Below, piece after piece: positions 6,985 to 21,506 of a stretch of DNA of 64,000 nucleotides. The stretch spans positions 1-64,000 of the forward strand of contig JBMFRC010000004.1 of the NCBI GenBank assembly GCA_049968235.1. The letters run 5' to 3'. The notes under the pieces are model-generated. The model was given only the letters and a program-made list of their open reading frames with translations, did no database searches and was not told the DNA's origin. The DNA is from Candidatus Hydrogenedens sp. Its GTDB lineage: Bacteria; Hydrogenedentota; Hydrogenedentia; Hydrogenedentales; Hydrogenedentaceae. Every line of letters begins with the position of its first letter. Positions within the stretch are counted from its first letter, which is position 1. Both the position numbers and the translations under genes were made by a program.

Positions 6985-7474
6985 TTCTTTGTCCCTTTCA
7001 CTTCGTAACTGTTATAACTGCAAACTTTGTTTATAAATACAAATAAGTTACGGTTTTATTACATAGTTTCTCTCATTTTAAGATTAAACCCAACAATTTA
7101 TTTCGTCTCATAAATAACAACACAAATCTTACACACAAAAATTCTTTTATCTGTGTTTTTGTTGATTCTTAAAAATGCCTCAAATACATTTCAGAGATAA
7201 TTTCACATTTAATTACAAAGCATGTCATTATCAGCATGAAACAATATGTGAAGGAATAAAACATGTTATGTTATATATGAGAAACAAGAAGGAAAAATGA
7301 ATACACGGAATTAAAAACCTCTCTCCCGCGACAAAAGAACAATATATTCGAATATAAGTCTTCTTTAAGATTTCTTATATTTTATAAAGAACTGGCTAAA
7401 AATGAAACTACATCCATTTATTAACAATTTAAGATAACCGAAATCAATCTTATGCCGTTCAAATACAATCTCAA

Positions 7475-8353
7475 TCAGAAAATGAGTGAAATAAGAACAC
7501 CTAATGGGTCTGCTGGGAATACACTGGGCCAACGAAGAAATTCTACATGTCCATCCATATACAGCACATTACCACCGCCCGGAACATGATTAAATGTTGA
7601 CGCTCCAGCATATACTGCTATCTCATCCCACATAACGGGTATCTCACTTGATGCTTTGGCACTTGCGGAAGGATTGTTAATATCCGTAATCAAAAACCGC
7701 TCTATACCCATTCTCAAACGGGGCAGAGACGCAAGGTCACTTAATTTACCTAAAATCCGCTGTTCTATGGGTAAACTATCATAGTAGAAAATCTCTAACA
7801 TCTTTGTAACAATATCATCTTTAATATACTGATACGCTAAATTAATTATGGTGCCTGCATCCGCATTTACATCAAGCCCAATTTCGGTTAAAGTTCTCGG
7901 AACCGTAATACCGGGGTCGAAAATTATAGAGGGATGTAAAGTCCAGCCAAGATAATAATAACTACCACGTGCTAATCTGCACGGCTCAACCGGTTTGGTA
8001 AGGTCACCATCTTGATGAAATGCTCGTCGAACTGATTCCGCATCGGAATCGGATGGGCAGACACAAATATTTACATCATTCAAATATTCAGGATAAACAG
8101 AAGGTCCATTAAAAGTTGCATCACGCGAAAAACCTCCATCACAGTTGTATAACTTTATAGGTGGGAACATTTCTCCCTTTGCCTCATTTGCATACATATT
8201 GAAAACCAGTCCCATCTGTTTCAGATTGTTCTGACAACTCGACCGTCTCGCAGCTTCTCGGGCTCTTGCCAGTGCAGGCAATAATATTGCCGCTAAAATC
8301 CCAATAATGGCAATAACGACCAATAACTCAATAAGCGTAAAACCTTTTTTCAT
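7475..8353 (-). CDS. Prepilin-type N-terminal cleavage/methylation protein with a DUF1559 H-X9-DG domain.
   Basis: 292 aa. The N-terminus [27 protein letters not shown] is a class III signal peptide. The C-terminal [17 protein letters not shown] is the H-X9-DG signature typical of Planctomycetes, Verrucomicrobia and Lentisphaerae. Confidence 0.85.
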
Positions 8354-11600: not shown

Positions 11601-12146
11601 GGTTATATTCTCCTGTCTCGCATTATCTTCTAAAACCAATTTTGCATTAGCCCAATTCGCACAATCACAGGTAATGCCATCATTCCCAGCTTTAACTACA
11701 AGACGCAGTACACGGGCGTTATTCAAGTCAATCTTAACCGGCACAGGAGAATCTAATTCGCGTATTACACCACTGTCCCAGCGTTTTTCACCATCCACAA
11801 ATATCTGGAAAACCACGCTACCTGTATTTGTCCCACTTTGCCTCTGAACTCCTGCCTCACACTCGAAATACTTATATTGACTGTTTAAATCAACTATAAT
11901 CTCCCCCGAAGCATGATGTCCTATACCTTTTTGATACTTCTTTTCTCCTATTTGCAACTCCATTGGAGTTTGCCCGGATGAATGTGCGGATACATCCCAG
12001 CCTGTCTCTCCCCAACCCTGCGTAATTGAAACAATACGCTCCGGTATATCACTCAAATATATTATCTTATCCGCATAACACGGTAAAATTATAATAAATA
12101 AGGGAACGATTATCAGTCCACACATTTTCAATACACTTCTTGTCAT
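8610..12146 (-). CDS. Large secreted carbohydrate-active protein. It has an N-terminal NPCBM-like carbohydrate-binding module and a C-terminal alpha/alpha-toroid glycosidase-like region.
   Basis: 1178 aa with a signal peptide. The NPCBM-like segment runs GIGHHASGEIIVDLNSQYKYFECEAGV ... DCANWANAKL. The C-terminal region is helix-rich and Trp/Tyr-rich, typical of six-hairpin glycosidases. The glycoside hydrolase family is not assignable by eye. Confidence 0.5.
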   Translation of the reverse strand: MTRSVLKMCGLIIVPLFIIILPCYADKIIYLSDIPERIVSITQGWGETGWDVSAHSSGQTPMELQIGEKKYQKGIGHHASGEIIVDLNSQYKYFECEAGVQRQSGTNTGSVVFQIFVDGEKRWDSGVIRELDSPVPVKIDLNNARVLRLVVKAGNDGITCDCANWANAKLVLEDNARQENITNNLDIALFADVITCDPKRYEGAHCSRVEEFPAEDISLETKLQPREEGNYEVPDYKGVKCIGLRWYERRKLTDLSVEFADNNIPSQIKVEAWTGESPWQGKWQNVEGKVEVKGNQCSLHIPWRDNLFIWKGTEKIRWIFESDKPLYIKNLNAYTNSYWDKTVIRLEKEQGDSNTQATLQIYNGTFLESSNSLCQLWKLSEPLTLNLLHSIPRSDKGDRTLLWIHLPDTKLCIAIEDILTHPCVYVPSVGVFAVLQSSSLTINEYKKTIEGKQSVLDSVRSLPEQTFSNAMKKIHHPVQDNGPTMLSLACDNNKFIVEREGSIQFNDFFMKVRMGNSDKLKRTLYQDWMPVPVIEKNDDGITYWSRTFVAPYKEKKSLCISQFEMKNDDGKEKHSDFSLSFYSHKREGIKAELEKKNQIIFVKEDDKILGICKIENAIAEINGENIFINHPVSSGSFIKLCVIIPSDTDMNTNEIEHIEEEQLLEKTVEYWKKLFADSIEISIPEPLLNNVIKASQVHCLIAGRSEGKFIAPWIASMSYGPLESEAHSIVYGMDLMGWHEFSRKSLEYFISKYNRAGYLTTGYTLMGTGWHLWTLAEHYQLTRDKEWLSRYADKLSRVCDWIMAQCEKTKKVDIDGERIPEYGLMPPGVGADWNRFAYRFAIQGHFCAGLHGIGSILKDINYPLADKYLRGAKELTVSILRAFEWNKERTPVLPLSNGKWILPYPPNLYTFGTSGEMFPGEDAGRSWAYDVELGPHHLIPLGILDPYSNDAENIVQHMEDYWFLHSDYWFAFSGEGDYPEEGNKQDPFNLGGFSKIQPYYTRIAETYALRDEVKPFIRSYFNAIPSLLNTENLSFWEHFHNIGAWNKTHETGWFLIQTRKMFLREDKDTLWLAPFIPSYWLEAGKQITIKNADTYFGKVSYSLQSNINNDEIIGTIHLTKDKNFRKVILRIRHPYNKPIKQVLLNSTEYDKWDKQSNLIYLSPNLNKIEDDWLLTCIF

Positions 12147-12258
12147 TCGATTATCTCCTTATAGTGAATCATCTAAATATCAGAACAGATTATGTTTTAA
12201 AGAGTCTTGTGTTTAGAAACTTCGTTAAACTAAAATTCCTCCATTCTAAAAAGGGTTT

Positions 12259-12669
12259 TTAATGAAATACAAACAGAAATATTGTTCCGCGATGAATTTT
12301 CATACACTTAATAAATTGGTAATAATTTTTATCAATTTGTCCTTCTCTTTCGTATCGCTTATAGCAATTAATAGAAATTAATAGAGCCAGTACTGTTAAA
12401 GCATTATCATTTATTTTCTTTTTACCTGTCTTGTGATAGAGATAATGGTTTTTATCTAAAAAATAAACGAACAAAAAAGAGGCAATTCTTTTATTACCAT
12501 CTACGAAAGGATGGTCCTTAATTATAAAATATAAGAGATGTGCGGATTTTTCTTCGAGTGATGGATACAAATCTTTACGGTCAAAACTCTGATATATATT
12601 GCCCAATATTGCCTTGAATTTTTCCCCAACTTCCTGACCAAAAAGTATGCCTGCTTCTTTTTTTGCCAT
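12259..12669 (-). CDS. Doc-type Fic domain (death-on-curing toxin family). Probably the C-terminal half of a split RhuM-Fic/Doc gene.
   Basis: 136 aa. HPFVDGNKRIASFLF matches the Doc active-site motif HxFx(D)GNKR. The reading frame stays open upstream to 12765 and overlaps the end of the preceding ORF. Confidence 0.7.
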   Translation of the reverse strand: MAKKEAGILFGQEVGEKFKAILGNIYQSFDRKDLYPSLEEKSAHLLYFIIKDHPFVDGNKRIASFLFVYFLDKNHYLYHKTGKKKINDNALTVLALLISINCYKRYEREGQIDKNYYQFIKCMKIHRGTIFLFVFH

Positions 12670-12746
12670 TAAATCTTTCTTAATTTCCTCTATAACTTTC
12701 CGTGCTCCCTCATAGCCTAAAATAAATTTCTCTTTTGCCGACTTTA

Positions 12747-13316
12747 CTATCTTAAGTTTTCTCTGTCATACTGTTCCAACAAAGTCAAAGTTTTAGCATA
12801 GTTAGCCAGTAAGTTTAAAATTTCCTGCTCTTGTCCAGCAAGTAATTCATGTTTTGCTTTTTCTTGTAAAAGTGATATTGCTCCGTGGAGTTCTTCAAAC
12901 TGCTTCTGTGATCGTAGAAGCCTTTCTTCATTTATCGTATAACCTTTAACCAGATGTTCTTTAAGCGTTTTAGTTGCCCAGATACGGAATTGAGTACCGC
13001 GTAAAGACTTAACTCTATAGCCTACAGAGATTATTACATCAAGGTTGTAAAAATCTATTTCTCTTTCTACCTGTCTTTTACCCTCTTTTTGAACTATTCG
13101 GAATTTCCGAATAGTTGAATTTTTATCAAGTTCTCTTTCTTTATATATATTTTTTATATGTTCATTGATAGTTGGTATCCCTTTATCAAAAAGTATTGAC
13201 ATCTGTTTTTGAGTGAGCCACACAGTTTCATCTTTAAGTCGAACTTCTAATTGAGGTCCTTCCTTTGAACTATAAATTACAATTTCACCTTTTTTGAAAT
13301 CGTCTTGTTGCTTCAT
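12747..13316 (-). CDS. RhuM-family domain protein. Probably the N-terminal half of a split RhuM-Fic/Doc gene.
   Basis: 189 aa. YNLDVIISVGYRVKSLRGTQFRIWATKTLKEHLVKGY is the conserved RhuM core. The ORF stops 77 nt before the Doc ORF start, in a different frame. Confidence 0.65.
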   Translation of the reverse strand: MKQQDDFKKGEIVIYSSKEGPQLEVRLKDETVWLTQKQMSILFDKGIPTINEHIKNIYKERELDKNSTIRKFRIVQKEGKRQVEREIDFYNLDVIISVGYRVKSLRGTQFRIWATKTLKEHLVKGYTINEERLLRSQKQFEELHGAISLLQEKAKHELLAGQEQEILNLLANYAKTLTLLEQYDRENLR

Positions 13317-13541
13317 TGGGAATATTCCTATTCACGCTTAATTAAATATCGGATTTAGGTAACCTTTCTATTTTGTCGTAATAGTTTGATGTTTTTTTTA
13401 TGGAACTGATGTAATCGTATCTACTTTTTATCTTAACATAGTAGTCCACTAATCATATACATAGGATGTGCGAGATAAACACACAGGTAAGAATGTTGAT
13501 AATACCTTTTTAATTACAAGTAGTTTGGCAGGCAAATAATG

Positions 13542-15350
13542 TTAGTACACATATAATTTTGTGGGGATGTTGCCATTCCAGCGGGACCATGTATCGTAAT
13601 TTCTATTAATTGTTTCACTGTTGATGGATTTAATCACCCAAATTCCCGCAGGTGCATTAACATCGTATTCGATTTTATTATCATCTAAAAACACGAAGGA
13701 TGAATATATTTTTTCTCTTGAAGGATTTTTGTTGATGAGTTCTGATAATAATTTGTCGGGTGAAAGGTTGTTTCTCTCGGGTAAATACAATAAGCCCAAT
13801 TTCTCATCATTATAGACACAAACATACAAACTGCCTGCACATTCAGGTGCAAAAACGAACCACGATTCCTTTTGAGCAAAGGGTGTATATTGGGATGGAA
13901 TATGTACGGGGGAATTTCCTACGGCAAATCTTTTGTAAACGCCTGTATTGTTCCAGCACCACCATTTACCCCTCCCTTTTATATGGAAACACTTATTAAT
14001 ATCTATTTCCCTATCATTCAATAATAAGGTCGTAGGTCTCGGAATAATCATGGCACGCAGACCTCTATATACTCCTCCTGCACTAATCAGATATTCTGGA
14101 CCTCCACTATATATTTCAGGAGTTCCGTTTTCCCCATAACCTATCTGAACAAAATAATCATAGGGCTTTTCAATTGCCCATTTCTTCACAATAGGAGGGA
14201 CTGTGTATGTAGATAAAACAGCAAAAAGTACTTGAGAAGAACGGGTCATTTCTTTGCCCGGTGCATCATCACTTTCAGGCAGACACCACCATCGCATTAA
14301 TGCCGTGTGTGGGTCAATCACCAATGATGTTGTATTTGCATATTCAAATCTACGACGGAAAGGGGCACATCTGCGAAACTGTGAACTGCCTAACGCGTAT
14401 TTCCAATTGATGCTGTCCAGAACCTTATGTGCTCTAACCTTCACCTCCGCCGAATCAGGAAATTCTTCCAGATTTAGTAATGCCTGAACCGCATATAACA
14501 AATAAGGAATGGAATTAAACTCATATTCGCCGTTCCAAAGCATTTCATCAAGATAAGTAACAAGCCATTTTTCCAAACCGTTGTTTTTGTTATCATGTTC
14601 AGGCTTGCCGGGAGTAGTTGTAGAATTCCCATATTTAAACAACCACTGATTTTTCAAGTATCTGCTACTTTCCGTCATCAATTGGTGATTTTCCGTGTCG
14701 CGAATCCAGCCCAATGACCTTGGCACCATCTCCCGTGGTTGCCCTCCTTCTTCTACCAAAAGGACTTTTAGTAAATGCTCTAAGGTCTCCGGATATATCA
14801 GGTCCTGATTATGTCCAAAAAGATATAGAATTTTGGTAAGCACTACCTCCGTAAAATCATAATCGCCTTTATATCCGAACCAGGAAGAACCACTGCCCGA
14901 CCACGGCTCCAACTGTTGTAGATATTCATTTACTTCCTTGATTTCCTCTCCACAAGCAAGTTTTGCTAAACATACATATGGGGAATGTCCTTTTCCATAC
15001 TTTTTCCAATCTAATATGGGTTTTCCTGCAATTGACTGGATATACTCCTTGATATAATTAGATTTGTAATCAATCTCATCCTTTCCATCTTCCACAAATA
15101 TATTTTCATCCCATTGTGGACCTGCTTCACCCCAGGATAATGGGGTAATTGATTCGCGTCCTGCACCTAATAATTCATCAACAAATAAAGGTAAAAGAAA
15201 TAAGGGAATTAAGAGGAAAGTAAGCCCTGAAAAAGTGTAAAAAATTAATCTACTTAGCAAGAAGAAAACTTTCATTTTCAATTTTATAGAATTACTTAGA
15301 AAAATCCATTTATACCTGCAAATATTATCAGGAATAAGCCTATAATCCAC
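13542..15350 (-). CDS. Signal-anchored secreted hypothetical protein, possibly a polysaccharide lyase or hydrolase accessory.
   Basis: 602 aa as in the ORF track. The start is more likely the internal MKVFFLLSRLIFYTF... near 15275. The hydrophobic N-terminus is followed by a Trp-rich soluble domain. No recognisable catalytic motif. Confidence 0.4.
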   Translation of the reverse strand: MDYRLIPDNICRYKWIFLSNSIKLKMKVFFLLSRLIFYTFSGLTFLLIPLFLLPLFVDELLGAGRESITPLSWGEAGPQWDENIFVEDGKDEIDYKSNYIKEYIQSIAGKPILDWKKYGKGHSPYVCLAKLACGEEIKEVNEYLQQLEPWSGSGSSWFGYKGDYDFTEVVLTKILYLFGHNQDLIYPETLEHLLKVLLVEEGGQPREMVPRSLGWIRDTENHQLMTESSRYLKNQWLFKYGNSTTTPGKPEHDNKNNGLEKWLVTYLDEMLWNGEYEFNSIPYLLYAVQALLNLEEFPDSAEVKVRAHKVLDSINWKYALGSSQFRRCAPFRRRFEYANTTSLVIDPHTALMRWWCLPESDDAPGKEMTRSSQVLFAVLSTYTVPPIVKKWAIEKPYDYFVQIGYGENGTPEIYSGGPEYLISAGGVYRGLRAMIIPRPTTLLLNDREIDINKCFHIKGRGKWWCWNNTGVYKRFAVGNSPVHIPSQYTPFAQKESWFVFAPECAGSLYVCVYNDEKLGLLYLPERNNLSPDKLLSELINKNPSREKIYSSFVFLDDNKIEYDVNAPAGIWVIKSINSETINRNYDTWSRWNGNIPTKLYVY

Positions 15351-17956: not shown

Positions 17957-19903
17957 TTATCTATGATACACTTTACTTTTCCGCAAAACAAAAATAAGCA
18001 ATAAGGTGGGGAATATAAGCAGGAGGGAATTATTAGTAATGCTTAAACCATGCGAGACATGTAAATAGACTTTTGGAGTTTCCACTACATTCAAATCATC
18101 TGAAACATGACACCAATACCAGCCTGAATCTTCAACGGATAAATCTTCAATATAAAGTTCCTGCCCTGATACATACGGAATAATTGTTGGATTGGGACAA
18201 AGATAATCTTTGCAATAATACCACTCATAGCCTATATTCCCCTGTGCTCCTTCTACATGAATAGTAAAAAGTTGCGATTCTCCAACAATTTTATTAATAT
18301 ATGTTTCCCCTTCTATCCATGCTATTAATTCGCTATCACCCTCTAAATCCCCCTCTCCTTCAAATATTCCTTCGATACTCCCTTCAGGTTCTCCATCTAT
18401 AATTCCTTCACTTTCAGGGCTCCCTTCTGATTCTCCTTCTATAATCCCCTCGCCTTCAAAAATACCTTCCGCCTCTCCATCTATAATTCCTTCACCTTCT
18501 GTAGGAATTCCTTCTGGAATTCCCTCGCCTTCACCATATCCCTCATTTATCAAGGTAAAATATGCTACATAATTTTTGTTCTCAATTATATTTGTATCTT
18601 TCCTGTTGGGAGTTAATAAACCATCTGACCAATGGTCAAAAAGATATCCACTATCCGCTACTGCAATTACTTCAGTTCCATCATTACCACGCATGATATT
18701 TTGCGTTGCATTTCCCAAAATATTTCCTCCAATATCCGCAGTATAAGTTACTGTAAATATCGGTGGTCTTTTTAATTCTGTAATTTTATAACTTATTTTC
18801 CCTCCTGCATAATAAAAATCCCCACCCACATATAAATTCCCTTGAGAATCGAACACCAGAGATCTGATTTCTTTATTTGAGCCATTTACTCCTGATGTTA
18901 TGCTACGCCAGTTACCTGAATACCACCATGCTAACCCATTTGCACTTATATTACCACCTGCAATGGAAAAATTACCTCCAATAAAAATAGATTGTGATGA
19001 TTTGGGTAAAATTGAATAAACGATGCCATTTACCCCGCCATCTAAAGAAGTCCACGAAGAACCATCCCAAATAGATATATTACTCACATTCACCCCACCT
19101 GCTTGTGTAAAACTTCCACCTGCATACAATCTACCCGTTTCATCTACCGCAAGAGAGTACACAGGTCCGTTAATTCCAGTTCCAAGGGAATGCCAATTCG
19201 TTCCATCCCAGCGGGCTATATTATTTGCAGAAACATTACCTGCATACTGGAATTGTCCCCCTGCATATATATTTCCATTAGAATCCGATGTTAATGACAA
19301 AACATAAGGAGAAGTGCCACCGCTCACACCCAAATAAGGTTCTACCCATTGAGAACCATTCCAATATGCAATCCGATTAATAGGTGTAGAACCGGACTGA
19401 GTAAATTTGCCTCCTACAAAGACTGTCCCATTATTTGTAATAGTTACCGTATATACAGCATCATTAAAGCCACTTCCTACCGCTACCCAACTCGAACCAT
19501 TCCACTTTGCCACTCGATTTCGGAGATTTGAACCCGAATAGGTAAATGAACCCACTGCATAAATTTCACCCCCTGTGGATATACATATTTTTTCTACCGC
19601 ATTATTAAAACCCTGTCCCATGGCTTGCCAATTTATTCCATTCCACCTCGCTACTCGATTTGCACTTACGCCATTTATTGAAGTAAAAGTGCCTCCACAA
19701 TAAACAATATTGTTATTATCTATGCCAACAGAGGTTATTAATCCATCTGTCCAATTAGGACTTAAAGGTTGCCAATCTTCATCAAGATAATTTGGGATAT
19801 CTTCTGAATATATAAAGGTCGAAATAATTCCAATAAAAACGACTATACCCAATCGTAGAAAAAATAGCATTCGTATCCCTTTCCTTTCATTTTTTCTGTT
19901 CAA
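17957..19903 (-). CDS. Secreted multidomain protein with four parts. They are W-containing beta-propeller repeats, a Listeria/Bacteroides-type B-repeat, an EG-rich acidic spacer plus Ig-like domain, and a C-terminal hydrophobic-basic tail.
   Basis: 648 aa. About 6 repeats of the pattern I/VARWNG-W-LG-G-NG-VY-L--D--GN-Y-GG-F. The B-repeat element reads GYLFDHWSDG. The spacer reads GEGEGIPEGIPTEGEGIIDGEAEGIFEGEGIIEGESEG.... The Ig-like signature reads CKDYLC...EDSGWYWCHV. The C-terminus reads LLLIFPTLLLIFVLRKSKVYHR. Confidence 0.6.
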   Translation of the reverse strand: MNRKNERKGIRMLFFLRLGIVVFIGIISTFIYSEDIPNYLDEDWQPLSPNWTDGLITSVGIDNNNIVYCGGTFTSINGVSANRVARWNGINWQAMGQGFNNAVEKICISTGGEIYAVGSFTYSGSNLRNRVAKWNGSSWVAVGSGFNDAVYTVTITNNGTVFVGGKFTQSGSTPINRIAYWNGSQWVEPYLGVSGGTSPYVLSLTSDSNGNIYAGGQFQYAGNVSANNIARWDGTNWHSLGTGINGPVYSLAVDETGRLYAGGSFTQAGGVNVSNISIWDGSSWTSLDGGVNGIVYSILPKSSQSIFIGGNFSIAGGNISANGLAWWYSGNWRSITSGVNGSNKEIRSLVFDSQGNLYVGGDFYYAGGKISYKITELKRPPIFTVTYTADIGGNILGNATQNIMRGNDGTEVIAVADSGYLFDHWSDGLLTPNRKDTNIIENKNYVAYFTLINEGYGEGEGIPEGIPTEGEGIIDGEAEGIFEGEGIIEGESEGSPESEGIIDGEPEGSIEGIFEGEGDLEGDSELIAWIEGETYINKIVGESQLFTIHVEGAQGNIGYEWYYCKDYLCPNPTIIPYVSGQELYIEDLSVEDSGWYWCHVSDDLNVVETPKVYLHVSHGLSITNNSLLLIFPTLLLIFVLRKSKVYHR

Positions 19904-20260
19904 ATTTTGAGTATTTTACTACACTACTTGATTTCTCCTTCATCCAAAATAATTGTTCCGTCTTTGCTTGAATACATTCTTTTATTATCCGAATTAAATT
20001 CATATTTTACATCCAGAGATAATGATTCAATAGATAGAATTTTATAATACTTACATTTATTGGTTGCAAGTAATCAAGAGATTCTATATCCTTACTATCT
20101 TTTATTTTTGTATTTATTTCCTATTAATTTGATTTCTTAAAAATTAAAATTTTTTCTTTTTTCATTACATTGTATAAATCGAATATTACTTTATATTTTT
20201 TTCTAAACGAAATCCTATGTCTTCCATAAAATTAATAGTAAACTCTACTGTATCTATTTC

Positions 20261-21257
20261 CTATCCCGGATAAGTTGTATTACCAATATTGGGTTTGAGT
20301 ATTCTATACATTTCTAAATAGAATTTTTTCATATTCTCGTTATATAATTCCACCTTATCTTTTCCATTTCCCCTGACACCAATAAAATCATTTCCTATCT
20401 GAACAGTATCACATCCCAGGTCTTTAAGGGAATGAACTTCATTTTGCACATAATCAAGAGCAATAGAGTATGATGGCGATGTTACAATTCCATCTACTGA
20501 ATTATCTGGCAATTCTATTTTTCTTGCATCTCCTACTTTAATCTCTACATTGCCTAATTTCAGATTTAATTTTTCTTTTATTTCTATATAATCTTTGACG
20601 GATGCTATCATTAAATCAACATTTTTAATAGAAGAATTAATAAAGTTACGACCTCTATCTGAGTTATCACTAACAGATAATAATCTTGCTAATATATAAA
20701 AGTTTTGAGTTTTTTCGTTCTTTGTTAATTTACCGATATAATTGTAGTAATTATCATAACTATTAGAGTTCTGAAATAAAAGAGTTCCGGAAGTTGTAAT
20801 ATAAGAGACCACTTCATCTTTAATCTTTTTATTTCATCTAATACATTAATAGACTCGGTTTTAACCTTAGATTGAATAACGCATAAATGGGAGATATCTA
20901 TCCTATAAAATTTATCCCTAATAATTGTAATTCAATGGCTGTTGTCCCACTTCCCAAAAAAGGTTCAAAAAATATATCCTCCTTCTTTTAATCCGATAAT
21001 ATTTAACAATGCCCGAACCATTTGAGGGTGAAATTTCCCTTTATACGGATAGATCCAGTGTGTTAAATACTGATTAACAGAGTGCGTCCGATTTTTTCTA
21101 TTATTTGGAAATAATCTGTATATTTCCCAGATACAGTTTTAAAGTAAGACCCTTTTTTCCTAATCAGTTCTTTTTTTTCTTCAGTTGCCTCTAATATTCT
21201 GAACTCTCTTAATTCGTTTATCACTTCATAATCAATGCCTAATGCTTTTATTTCCAT
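20261..21257 (-). pseudogene. Fragmented N6/N4-type DNA methyltransferase remnant with multiple frameshifts. No cognate restriction gene is present.
   Basis: On the minus strand there are three pieces. ORF 21063-21257 comes first. It is followed in another frame by ...YPYKGKFHPQMVRALLNIIGLKEGGYIF. A +1 shift in a T7 run near 20965 then gives FEPFLGSGTTAIELQLLGINFIGIDIS (motif I). ORF 20261-20812 then carries LPDNSVDGIVTSPSY, a degenerate DPPY/SPPY motif IV. Confidence 0.6.
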
Positions 21258-21506
21258 TTCTGCTAATGACAGTTCATATATATTGGATATTATCTAATAA
21301 AACAATATCTCTATTGGAACCGTATTTATCTTCTTTTTCTATTCAGAGAGAATTTTCTGCTTTTCGTTTCATTACTTTACCTTTTGTTCCTGACTTTTCA
21401 TTTACATTTATTATTTATGTTTCAAATAATTCAAAATGAAATTTCATATTCAGAAGTATCAATCTACTTTTATAAGTATTAGTATATATAAACCTGTTCT
21501 CTATAT

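Follow-up and report, generated by a model that had tools for sequence, protein, structure and literature searches.

A decayed locus of Candidatus Hydrogenedens, placed between a lipid A acyltransferase gene and a gene for a 648-aa surface protein, is very likely what is left of a type II restriction-modification (R-M) cassette that no longer functions and once had two genes, a methyltransferase gene (M) followed by the gene for an MjaV-family endonuclease (R) of the PD-(D/E)XK type. The locus was studied within a stretch of 64,000 nucleotides, hereafter the window. Judged from their lesions, neither the methylase nor the endonuclease gene can now yield active enzyme. A first-pass annotation, made from the letters of the window, had offered two readings of the methyltransferase sequence, namely a relic of an R-M system or an orphan methyltransferase. 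The former is upheld by an intact syntenic M+R pair in a related contig (L001) and by an R remnant in the window, while the latter falls since a partner existed and was mostly deleted.

The methyltransferase pseudogene is one gene of a ~430-aa DNA methyltransferase family and runs on the minus strand over 21372..20124; the span of 20261-21257 first given for it was too small. A tblastn search of the window with P0001, the intact protein encoded by L001, covered residues 1-422, and thus the whole methyltransferase gene is there. Three-frame translation of 21330..20150 showed methyltransferase-like sequence distributed across all three minus-strand frames as a chain of fragments, beginning with MEIKALGIDYEV, continuing with NRTHSVNQYLTHWIYPYKGKFHPQMVRALLNIIGLKEGGYIF and FEPFLGSGTTAIELQLLGINFIG, both ended by a stop, and then IDISHLCVIQSKVKTESINVLDEIKRLK; the last fragment is a 183-aa ORF containing VDGIVTSPSYSIALDYV. 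In NCBI MAGs, two minus-strand parts of the pseudogene are entered as hypothetical proteins: 20261-20812 (183 aa, ACP5UA_03915) and 21063-21257 (64 aa, ACP5UA_03920).

Methyltransferase homology, proposed before any search was run, is confirmed by the stitched translation, which scored 41.6 bits against Pfam N6_N4_Mtase (PF01555), above the gathering cut-off of 26.7, and also matched UPF0020 (PF01170). Intact P0001 reached 62.3 bits for PF01555. A protein search with the stitched sequence retrieved 2645 relatives from the ~430-aa family (E = 1.5e-168), the best 120 of which are 65-75% identical to the query and are spread over archaea and many bacterial phyla. Two of the three motifs noted earlier, motif I (FLGSGTT) and a degenerate SPSY, are present as described, whereas the third, 'HPxxxP', is not literal: the sequence is FHPQMVRAL, an FHPQM block at 21033..21007 on the minus strand. 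The SPPY motif, from which SPSY departs, is typical of N4-cytosine methylases. The window has no unbroken ORF for a methyltransferase carrying both FxGxG (motif I) and SPPY (motif IV), and a search for a second methylase copy within it found none. Rfam and tRNA scans of the window gave no matches, so no RNA element is involved at the methylase locus.

The 41.9-kb contig L001, which encodes P0001, shares ~21 kb of collinear sequence with the window (~77% nucleotide identity). Its intact 424-aa methylase gene (L001 10001-11275) is collinear with the pseudogene at 77.5% nucleotide identity, and the repaired pseudogene translation is 72.7% identical to the L001 methylase. Nucleotide alignment of the two genes, on which the lesions in Table 1 are based, revealed six frameshifting indels (-2, -1, +1, -1, -1, -4), two premature stops and one 18-bp in-frame deletion. 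The earlier count of at least three frames was therefore correct for the frames and incomplete for the damage. The -1 deletion at codon 93, together with the -2 deletion at codon 31, restores the original frame. The +1 insertion at codons 132-137, which accounts for the stop following GGYIF, lies either in a T6 run (A6 on the plus strand, 20967-20972) or ~15 nt upstream near 20980, where GGGGAT became GGAGGAT; MAFFT chooses the upstream position, by which the conserved family 'EGD' is regained. A frameshift at this point had been placed exactly in a T7 homopolymer, but the run has 6 bases and the exact placement is insecure, the upstream position being equally possible. The C-terminal KVIFDLYNVMKKEKILIFKKSN comes after the 4-bp deletion at codon 401 and hence in another frame. 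Even with the frameshifts repaired, the two stops, the six-codon deletion and SPSY remain, and the corrected sequence is still not one intact ORF.

Table 1. Features of the decayed R-M locus, in window coordinates
Feature	Position	Strand	Remarks
Whole methyltransferase pseudogene	20124..21372	-	ATG 21372-21370 to conserved stop TAA 20126-20124
Premature stop 1, codon 10, TGG (L001) to TGA	21343..21345	-	Trp nearly invariant in family
2-bp deletion, codon 31, CAATTTATATAT to CAA--TATATAT; first frameshift	21280..21284 (~21282)	-	Alignment to L001
1-bp deletion, codon 93, within coding-strand A-run (T6 on plus strand)	21092..21097	-	Alignment to L001
1-bp (+1) insertion, codons 132-137	20967..20982	-	Placement ambiguous
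SAM-binding motif I, FLGSGTT	20940..20960	-	Family invariant is FSGSGTT
1-bp deletion, codon 157, between ...NFIG and IDIS...	20903..20907 (~20905)	-	Alignment to L001
1-bp deletion, codon 187, between ...EIKRLK and DEVV...	20815..20819 (~20817)	-	Alignment to L001
Catalytic motif IV, degraded, TSPSYS	20465..20482	-	Family invariant is TSPPYS; P302S
18-bp in-frame deletion, six codons lost (KYAVII, codons 364-369)	20285..20289 (~20287)	-	Alignment to L001
Premature stop 2, codon 377, CAA (Gln, L001) to TAG	20261..20263	-	Alignment to L001
4-bp deletion, codon 401; last frameshift	20190..20194 (~20192)	-	Alignment to L001
Degenerate sequence, probably 5' endonuclease remnant and M-R spacer	20061..20112	-	..SKDIESLDYLQP vs ..TKRLENIIKQMLQP; start codon lost, frame differs from 3' remnant
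3' remnant of restriction endonuclease gene	19924..20058	-	44 in-frame codons (KCKYYKILSIESLSLDVKYEFNSDNKRMYSSKDGTIILDEGEIK) and stop TAG 19926-19924

Window 27601-18378 was compared with an NCBI assembly independent of its own (L006, GCA_049969095.1): the 9224 bp aligned are 99.9% identical and contain 0 gaps, with the caveat that the two assemblies may derive from one study and one population. Inside the pseudogene they differ by one substitution, and all indels and tract lengths are identical. Because L006 reproduces every indel, the indels are neither sequencing errors nor phase variation. It is thus exceedingly improbable that the gene is in truth intact and that its interruptions stem from faulty sequencing or assembly, for instance miscalled homopolymers in a MAG. 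The genome is indeed a MAG, the region is AT-rich (29.5% GC), and some of the indels touch homopolymers. But the zero-gap agreement with L006 speaks against such errors, as do the neighbouring genes, the rest of the window being dense with ORFs that are intact and reach 1178 aa; moreover, nonsense substitutions, deletions of 18 bp and ~480-580 bp and changes at 25 invariant residues are not homopolymer errors. The first-pass annotation had also raised a phase-variable methyltransferase (phasevarion), turned on and off by homopolymer slippage. Two indels do fall in or next to 6-base homopolymers (21092-21097 and 20967-20972), yet six bases make a short tract, four of the six frameshifts lie outside long runs, and the gene also carries the two nonsense codons, the 18-bp deletion and the SPPY to SPSY change. 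With nine independent disabling lesions besides the catalytic substitution, the ORF could not be regained through a change in any one tract, and comparison of the two assemblies, with zero gaps across the locus, gave no repeat tract of varying length in an otherwise intact ORF. The chance of a phasevarion is therefore virtually nil.

The two assemblies do differ in the neighbouring 648-aa putative surface-protein gene (17957-19903, minus strand), where an acidic GEGEGI/EGE low-complexity repeat at window 18378-18499 is not the same in L006. Seven mismatches are clustered at 18386-18412, and the overlap between BLAST segments measures 122 nt in the window vs 80 nt in L006, which implies an in-frame 42-bp difference in repeat copy number.

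Decay of the methylase gene is also seen in its substitutions. The pseudogene is altered at 25 of 196 family-invariant positions (invariance set by 22 diverse relatives), whereas 98 intact controls are altered at 10 such positions at most (median 1), and it is more distant than P0001 from all 119 other members (mean p-distance 0.311 vs 0.246). On this sequence comparison, the changes at invariant positions and the larger distances are indicative of relaxed constraint. The dN/dS of the pseudogene vs L001 is 0.089, similar to that of the functional flanking genes, and so the period of methylase inactivity was short relative to the lineage split. Dating is limited by the saturation of synonymous sites (pS ~0.65 for all genes, and likewise between phyla), due to which vertical and horizontal origin are not separable by dS.

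The claim that no endonuclease is adjacent was right for an intact gene and missed a remnant directly downstream of the methylase. The 44 codons at 20058..19927 match residues 180-223 of the intact 223-aa endonuclease, with 82% identity to the L001 R (tblastn, E = 2e-23) and 89% to the L003 R (E = 1e-25). An MjaV-family endonuclease gene thus adjoins the methylase in the window as a remnant only. About 578 bp of L001 (11286-11863) are without counterpart in the window, and endonuclease residues ~21-179 are deleted there, including the YPD...ECK segment (residues ~113-130 of the L001 R). This segment fits the PD-(D/E)XK pattern and its role in catalysis is predicted; the MjaV family stands in the PD-(D/E)XK block of Table 1 in PMC2441816. 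No intact endonuclease ORF with a PD...(D/E)XK catalytic region is present in the window. The sequence at 20061..20112 aligns locally and weakly to L001 and L008, an alignment that is statistically insecure, and is probably what remains of the 5' end of the endonuclease gene and the M-R spacer.

The intact form of the cassette is found in L001, where the 424-aa M is followed, after 51 bp, by a 223-aa R with Pfam PF27324 (MjaV), the flanking genes being the same as in the window. Both share the order T2SSE ATPase, GH63-like hydrolase, MBL/beta-CASP hydrolase, lipid A acyltransferase and methylase, with the 648/675-aa and 797-aa genes further along. PADLOC classified M as MTase_II (1.3e-31) and R as REase_II (2.9e-36); the assignment of R to PF27324 is based on precomputed Pfam hits, along with PADLOC. 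The L001 and window cassettes share both site and orientation, and P0001 was the nearest relative of the pseudogene in 98.8% of nearest-neighbour bootstraps.

Linkage between the two genes extends to the whole family. The methylase family is present in 322 species-representative genomes. Among the 80 best loci, 69 had at least 750 bp downstream of the methylase. An endonuclease homolog was found downstream on the same strand in 56 of the 69, mostly 4-30 bp away, and went undetected in the other 13. PF27324 is present in each of the 120 proteins that match the endonuclease best. At least nine other genomes (L017, L018, L034, L040, L042, L049, L050, L068 and L082) have an intact methylase beside an endonuclease that is shortened or split over two frames, with the caveat that frameshifts in MAGs can be assembly artefacts; these loci may be further cases of endonuclease-first decay in other phyla. 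Because of these loci, and of the 13 without a detectable R, loss of R first appears to be recurrent.

Variants of the layout were seen in a hydrothermal/thermophilic subgroup (L038, L059 and L077, from Archaeoglobaceae, Aminicenantes and Atrimonadaceae), whose endonuclease is ~25% identical to that of L001. L038 and L059 have a cysteine-containing ORF of ~156 aa between methylase and endonuclease (~7250-7730), which could code for a controller protein; L077 has the same M-R gap of ~490 bp, but no such ORF of at least 90 aa is listed there. The Mb-scale contig of L003/L004 (16293-17293), with intact M and R, also encodes a 940-aa MmeI/Eco57I-type (type IIG/IIL) restriction-methylase fusion. 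This gene is ~7 kb from the M+R pair, and hence defence genes cluster in that genome.

In the pseudogene, motif I is ahead of motif IV by ~155 residues. Such an order is unusual among the beta-class enzymes that typify PF01555, and it had suggested two tandem methyltransferase gene fragments side by side rather than one gene. However, all 120 top relatives are single intact proteins of 393-463 aa (most 418-444), collinear end to end with the window, and motif I (residues ~139-145) precedes motif IV (~300-303) in every intact relative examined (n=120), an order of the Trm11/UPF0020 type. Motif I before motif IV is thus normal for this family, which leaves the tandem-fragment explanation with next to no chance.

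The same order, together with weak structural matches to Trm11, explains why some members of the family bear the name of a tRNA methylase. Names given to intact members vary among 'tRNA G10 N-methylase Trm11', 'TRM11 family SAM-dependent methyltransferase' and 'DNA modification methylase'. The best PDB matches are archaeal Trm11 and are weak (profile E = 6e-11; Foldseek TM 0.32-0.42 at 15% identity); the Foldseek search of the PDB otherwise gave weak matches to generic methyltransferases. The AlphaFold model, with a pLDDT of 69.7, has a helical insertion of ~100 aa between motifs II and III. Scores of 53-63 bits for TIGR01177 (cut-off 316.55) and 23-33 bits for Trm14_Arch (cut-off 280) were obtained, and Pfam found no THUMP domain in the stitched translation or in the intact protein. 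By the TIGR01177 and NF040721 cut-offs and the N-terminal THUMP domain, then, the family is not a Trm11/Trm14-type tRNA guanine-N2 methyltransferase. Like archaeal Trm11/UPF0020 tRNA m2G10 methyltransferases, it consists of Rossmann-fold SAM methyltransferases with motif I before motif IV; unlike archaeal Trm11, it has no detected THUMP domain, carries the ~100-aa helical insertion and lies in an operon with an endonuclease. This operon linkage speaks for the family members being DNA rather than tRNA methylases.

We consider it very unlikely that the pseudogene derives from a methylase with no past in a restriction system, be it a Trm11-like tRNA/rRNA guanine-N2 methyltransferase or a solitary DNA methylase. 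The 'Trm11' names in some sources, the PF01170 match, the archaeal Trm11 as best PDB fold and the 13 of 69 loci without detectable R are in its favour, but they are outweighed by the R remnant directly downstream, the syntenic intact M+R pair in L001 and the linkage to R in 56 of 69 loci. A TIGR01177 score of 53 bits against 316, the absence of THUMP by Pfam, a fold match of only TM 0.32-0.42, the SPPY family motif and the MTase_II call of PADLOC argue against it as well.

The nearest known system is that of MjaV. R.MjaV (MJ1500 of Methanocaldococcus jannaschii) is an active enzyme; MjaV acts on GTAC, where M.MjaV makes m4C (PMC2615612, PMC11033074, PMC2588503). From the Pfam family name of the partner and the SPPY motif, the methylase family studied here may have GTAC/m4C specificity. 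As in the MjaV system, the layout is that of a two-gene type II system and the partner endonuclease carries PF27324 in every relative examined; the link to MjaV is made through this partner endonuclease family, and the intact methylases here carry S-P-P-Y. Unlike the MjaV system, the window copy is dead, with R cut to 44 codons and M bearing nine disabling lesions.

GTAC occurs 58 times in the window vs 133 expected, a moderate depletion (O/E 0.44; 0.57 in L001), and six other 4-bp palindromes are more depleted. By Markov expectation over window 1-64000, CTAG has 1 site vs 83.5 expected (O/E 0.01), followed by GATC (0.09), GGCC (0.15), ACGT (0.18), AGCT (0.18) and GCGC (0.32), and the palindromes rank alike in L001. 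This depletion suggests long exposure of the lineage to many 4-cutter restriction systems.

The decay itself resembles that of HpyAXII (GTAC) and other Helicobacter pylori R-M systems, in which R is inactivated or lost and M lasts longer, and in which inactivation occurs by deletions and frameshifts and varies among related strains (PMC2588503). M.HpyAXII is however an unrelated m6A enzyme with 12.7% identity to M.MjaV (PMC2588503), and in H. pylori the methylase usually stays active, whereas here the methylase has decayed too.

At the site of the cassette, other Hydrogenedens loci are empty. In L090-L092 as in L093-L095, the next gene after the acyltransferase lies within ~80-100 bp and encodes 662-674 aa, and a search of these loci for remnants of M or R found none. 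In L088/L089, synteny stops after the acyltransferase. Comparison with the empty sites gave a 12-nt upstream match (AAATGAAAAGTC) and a ~59% match between the L093 spacer and the R 3' end, both too weak to interpret; against both L090 and L093, the downstream end of the cassette coincides exactly with the stop codon of R. By identity of flanking genes, the window is nearest to L093 (83-88%) and L001 is nearest to L090. The presence of the cassette does not follow this flanking-gene tree, because L001 and the window have it and their nearest relatives, L090 and L093, do not. In the favoured history, the cassette was gained once by an ancestor, has since been lost completely twice and is being lost a third time. 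A rather unlikely alternative is that the ~2-kb M+R cassette moves as a unit, without carrying a mobility gene, into and out of one fixed intergenic site by homologous recombination between Hydrogenedens lineages. If so, the site would show, as a natural series, how a selfish R-M element is gained, decays and is excised in a phylum without cultivated members.

Elsewhere in the collinear region, ~3.2 kb of the window (12104-15295) are absent from L001, which has ~206 bp there between the 796-aa gene and a 1179-aa NPCBM-domain gene. ORFs on the minus strand of this segment are 12259-12669, 12747-13316 and 13542-15350, and L090 and L093 have a 571-577-aa gene at the matching position, so that L001 may have lost it.

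Homology, synteny, lesions and their reproducibility in a second assembly are directly observed at the R-M locus. The order of events, with R lost first and then M, is not visible in the window sequence, and we infer it from R-M logic and from the other loci. While the favoured R-M cassette was intact, its methylase would have modified the recognition sites in the DNA of the host, and the endonuclease would have cut incoming DNA that lacked the modification. Loss of M while R is active is lethal. In this lineage a deletion of ~480-580 bp took most of the endonuclease gene, including the predicted PD...ECK motif region, after which the methylase, no longer needed to protect the chromosome, would have gathered its frameshifts, nonsense codons, deletion and substitutions at invariant positions.

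The practical gain is chiefly one of annotation: the two deposited hypothetical proteins become one methyltransferase pseudogene accompanied by an endonuclease remnant, and the intact family, to which automatic pipelines often give the name 'Trm11 tRNA methylase', becomes the DNA methylase of an MjaV-type restriction system. No new mechanism is revealed, R-M decay being an ordinary and well-understood fate. Rather, the locus supports the expected order of decay, in which the endonuclease is lost first, and illustrates how R-M systems come and go in the uncultivated phylum Hydrogenedentota, the same site being intact in L001, decayed in the window and empty in other relatives.
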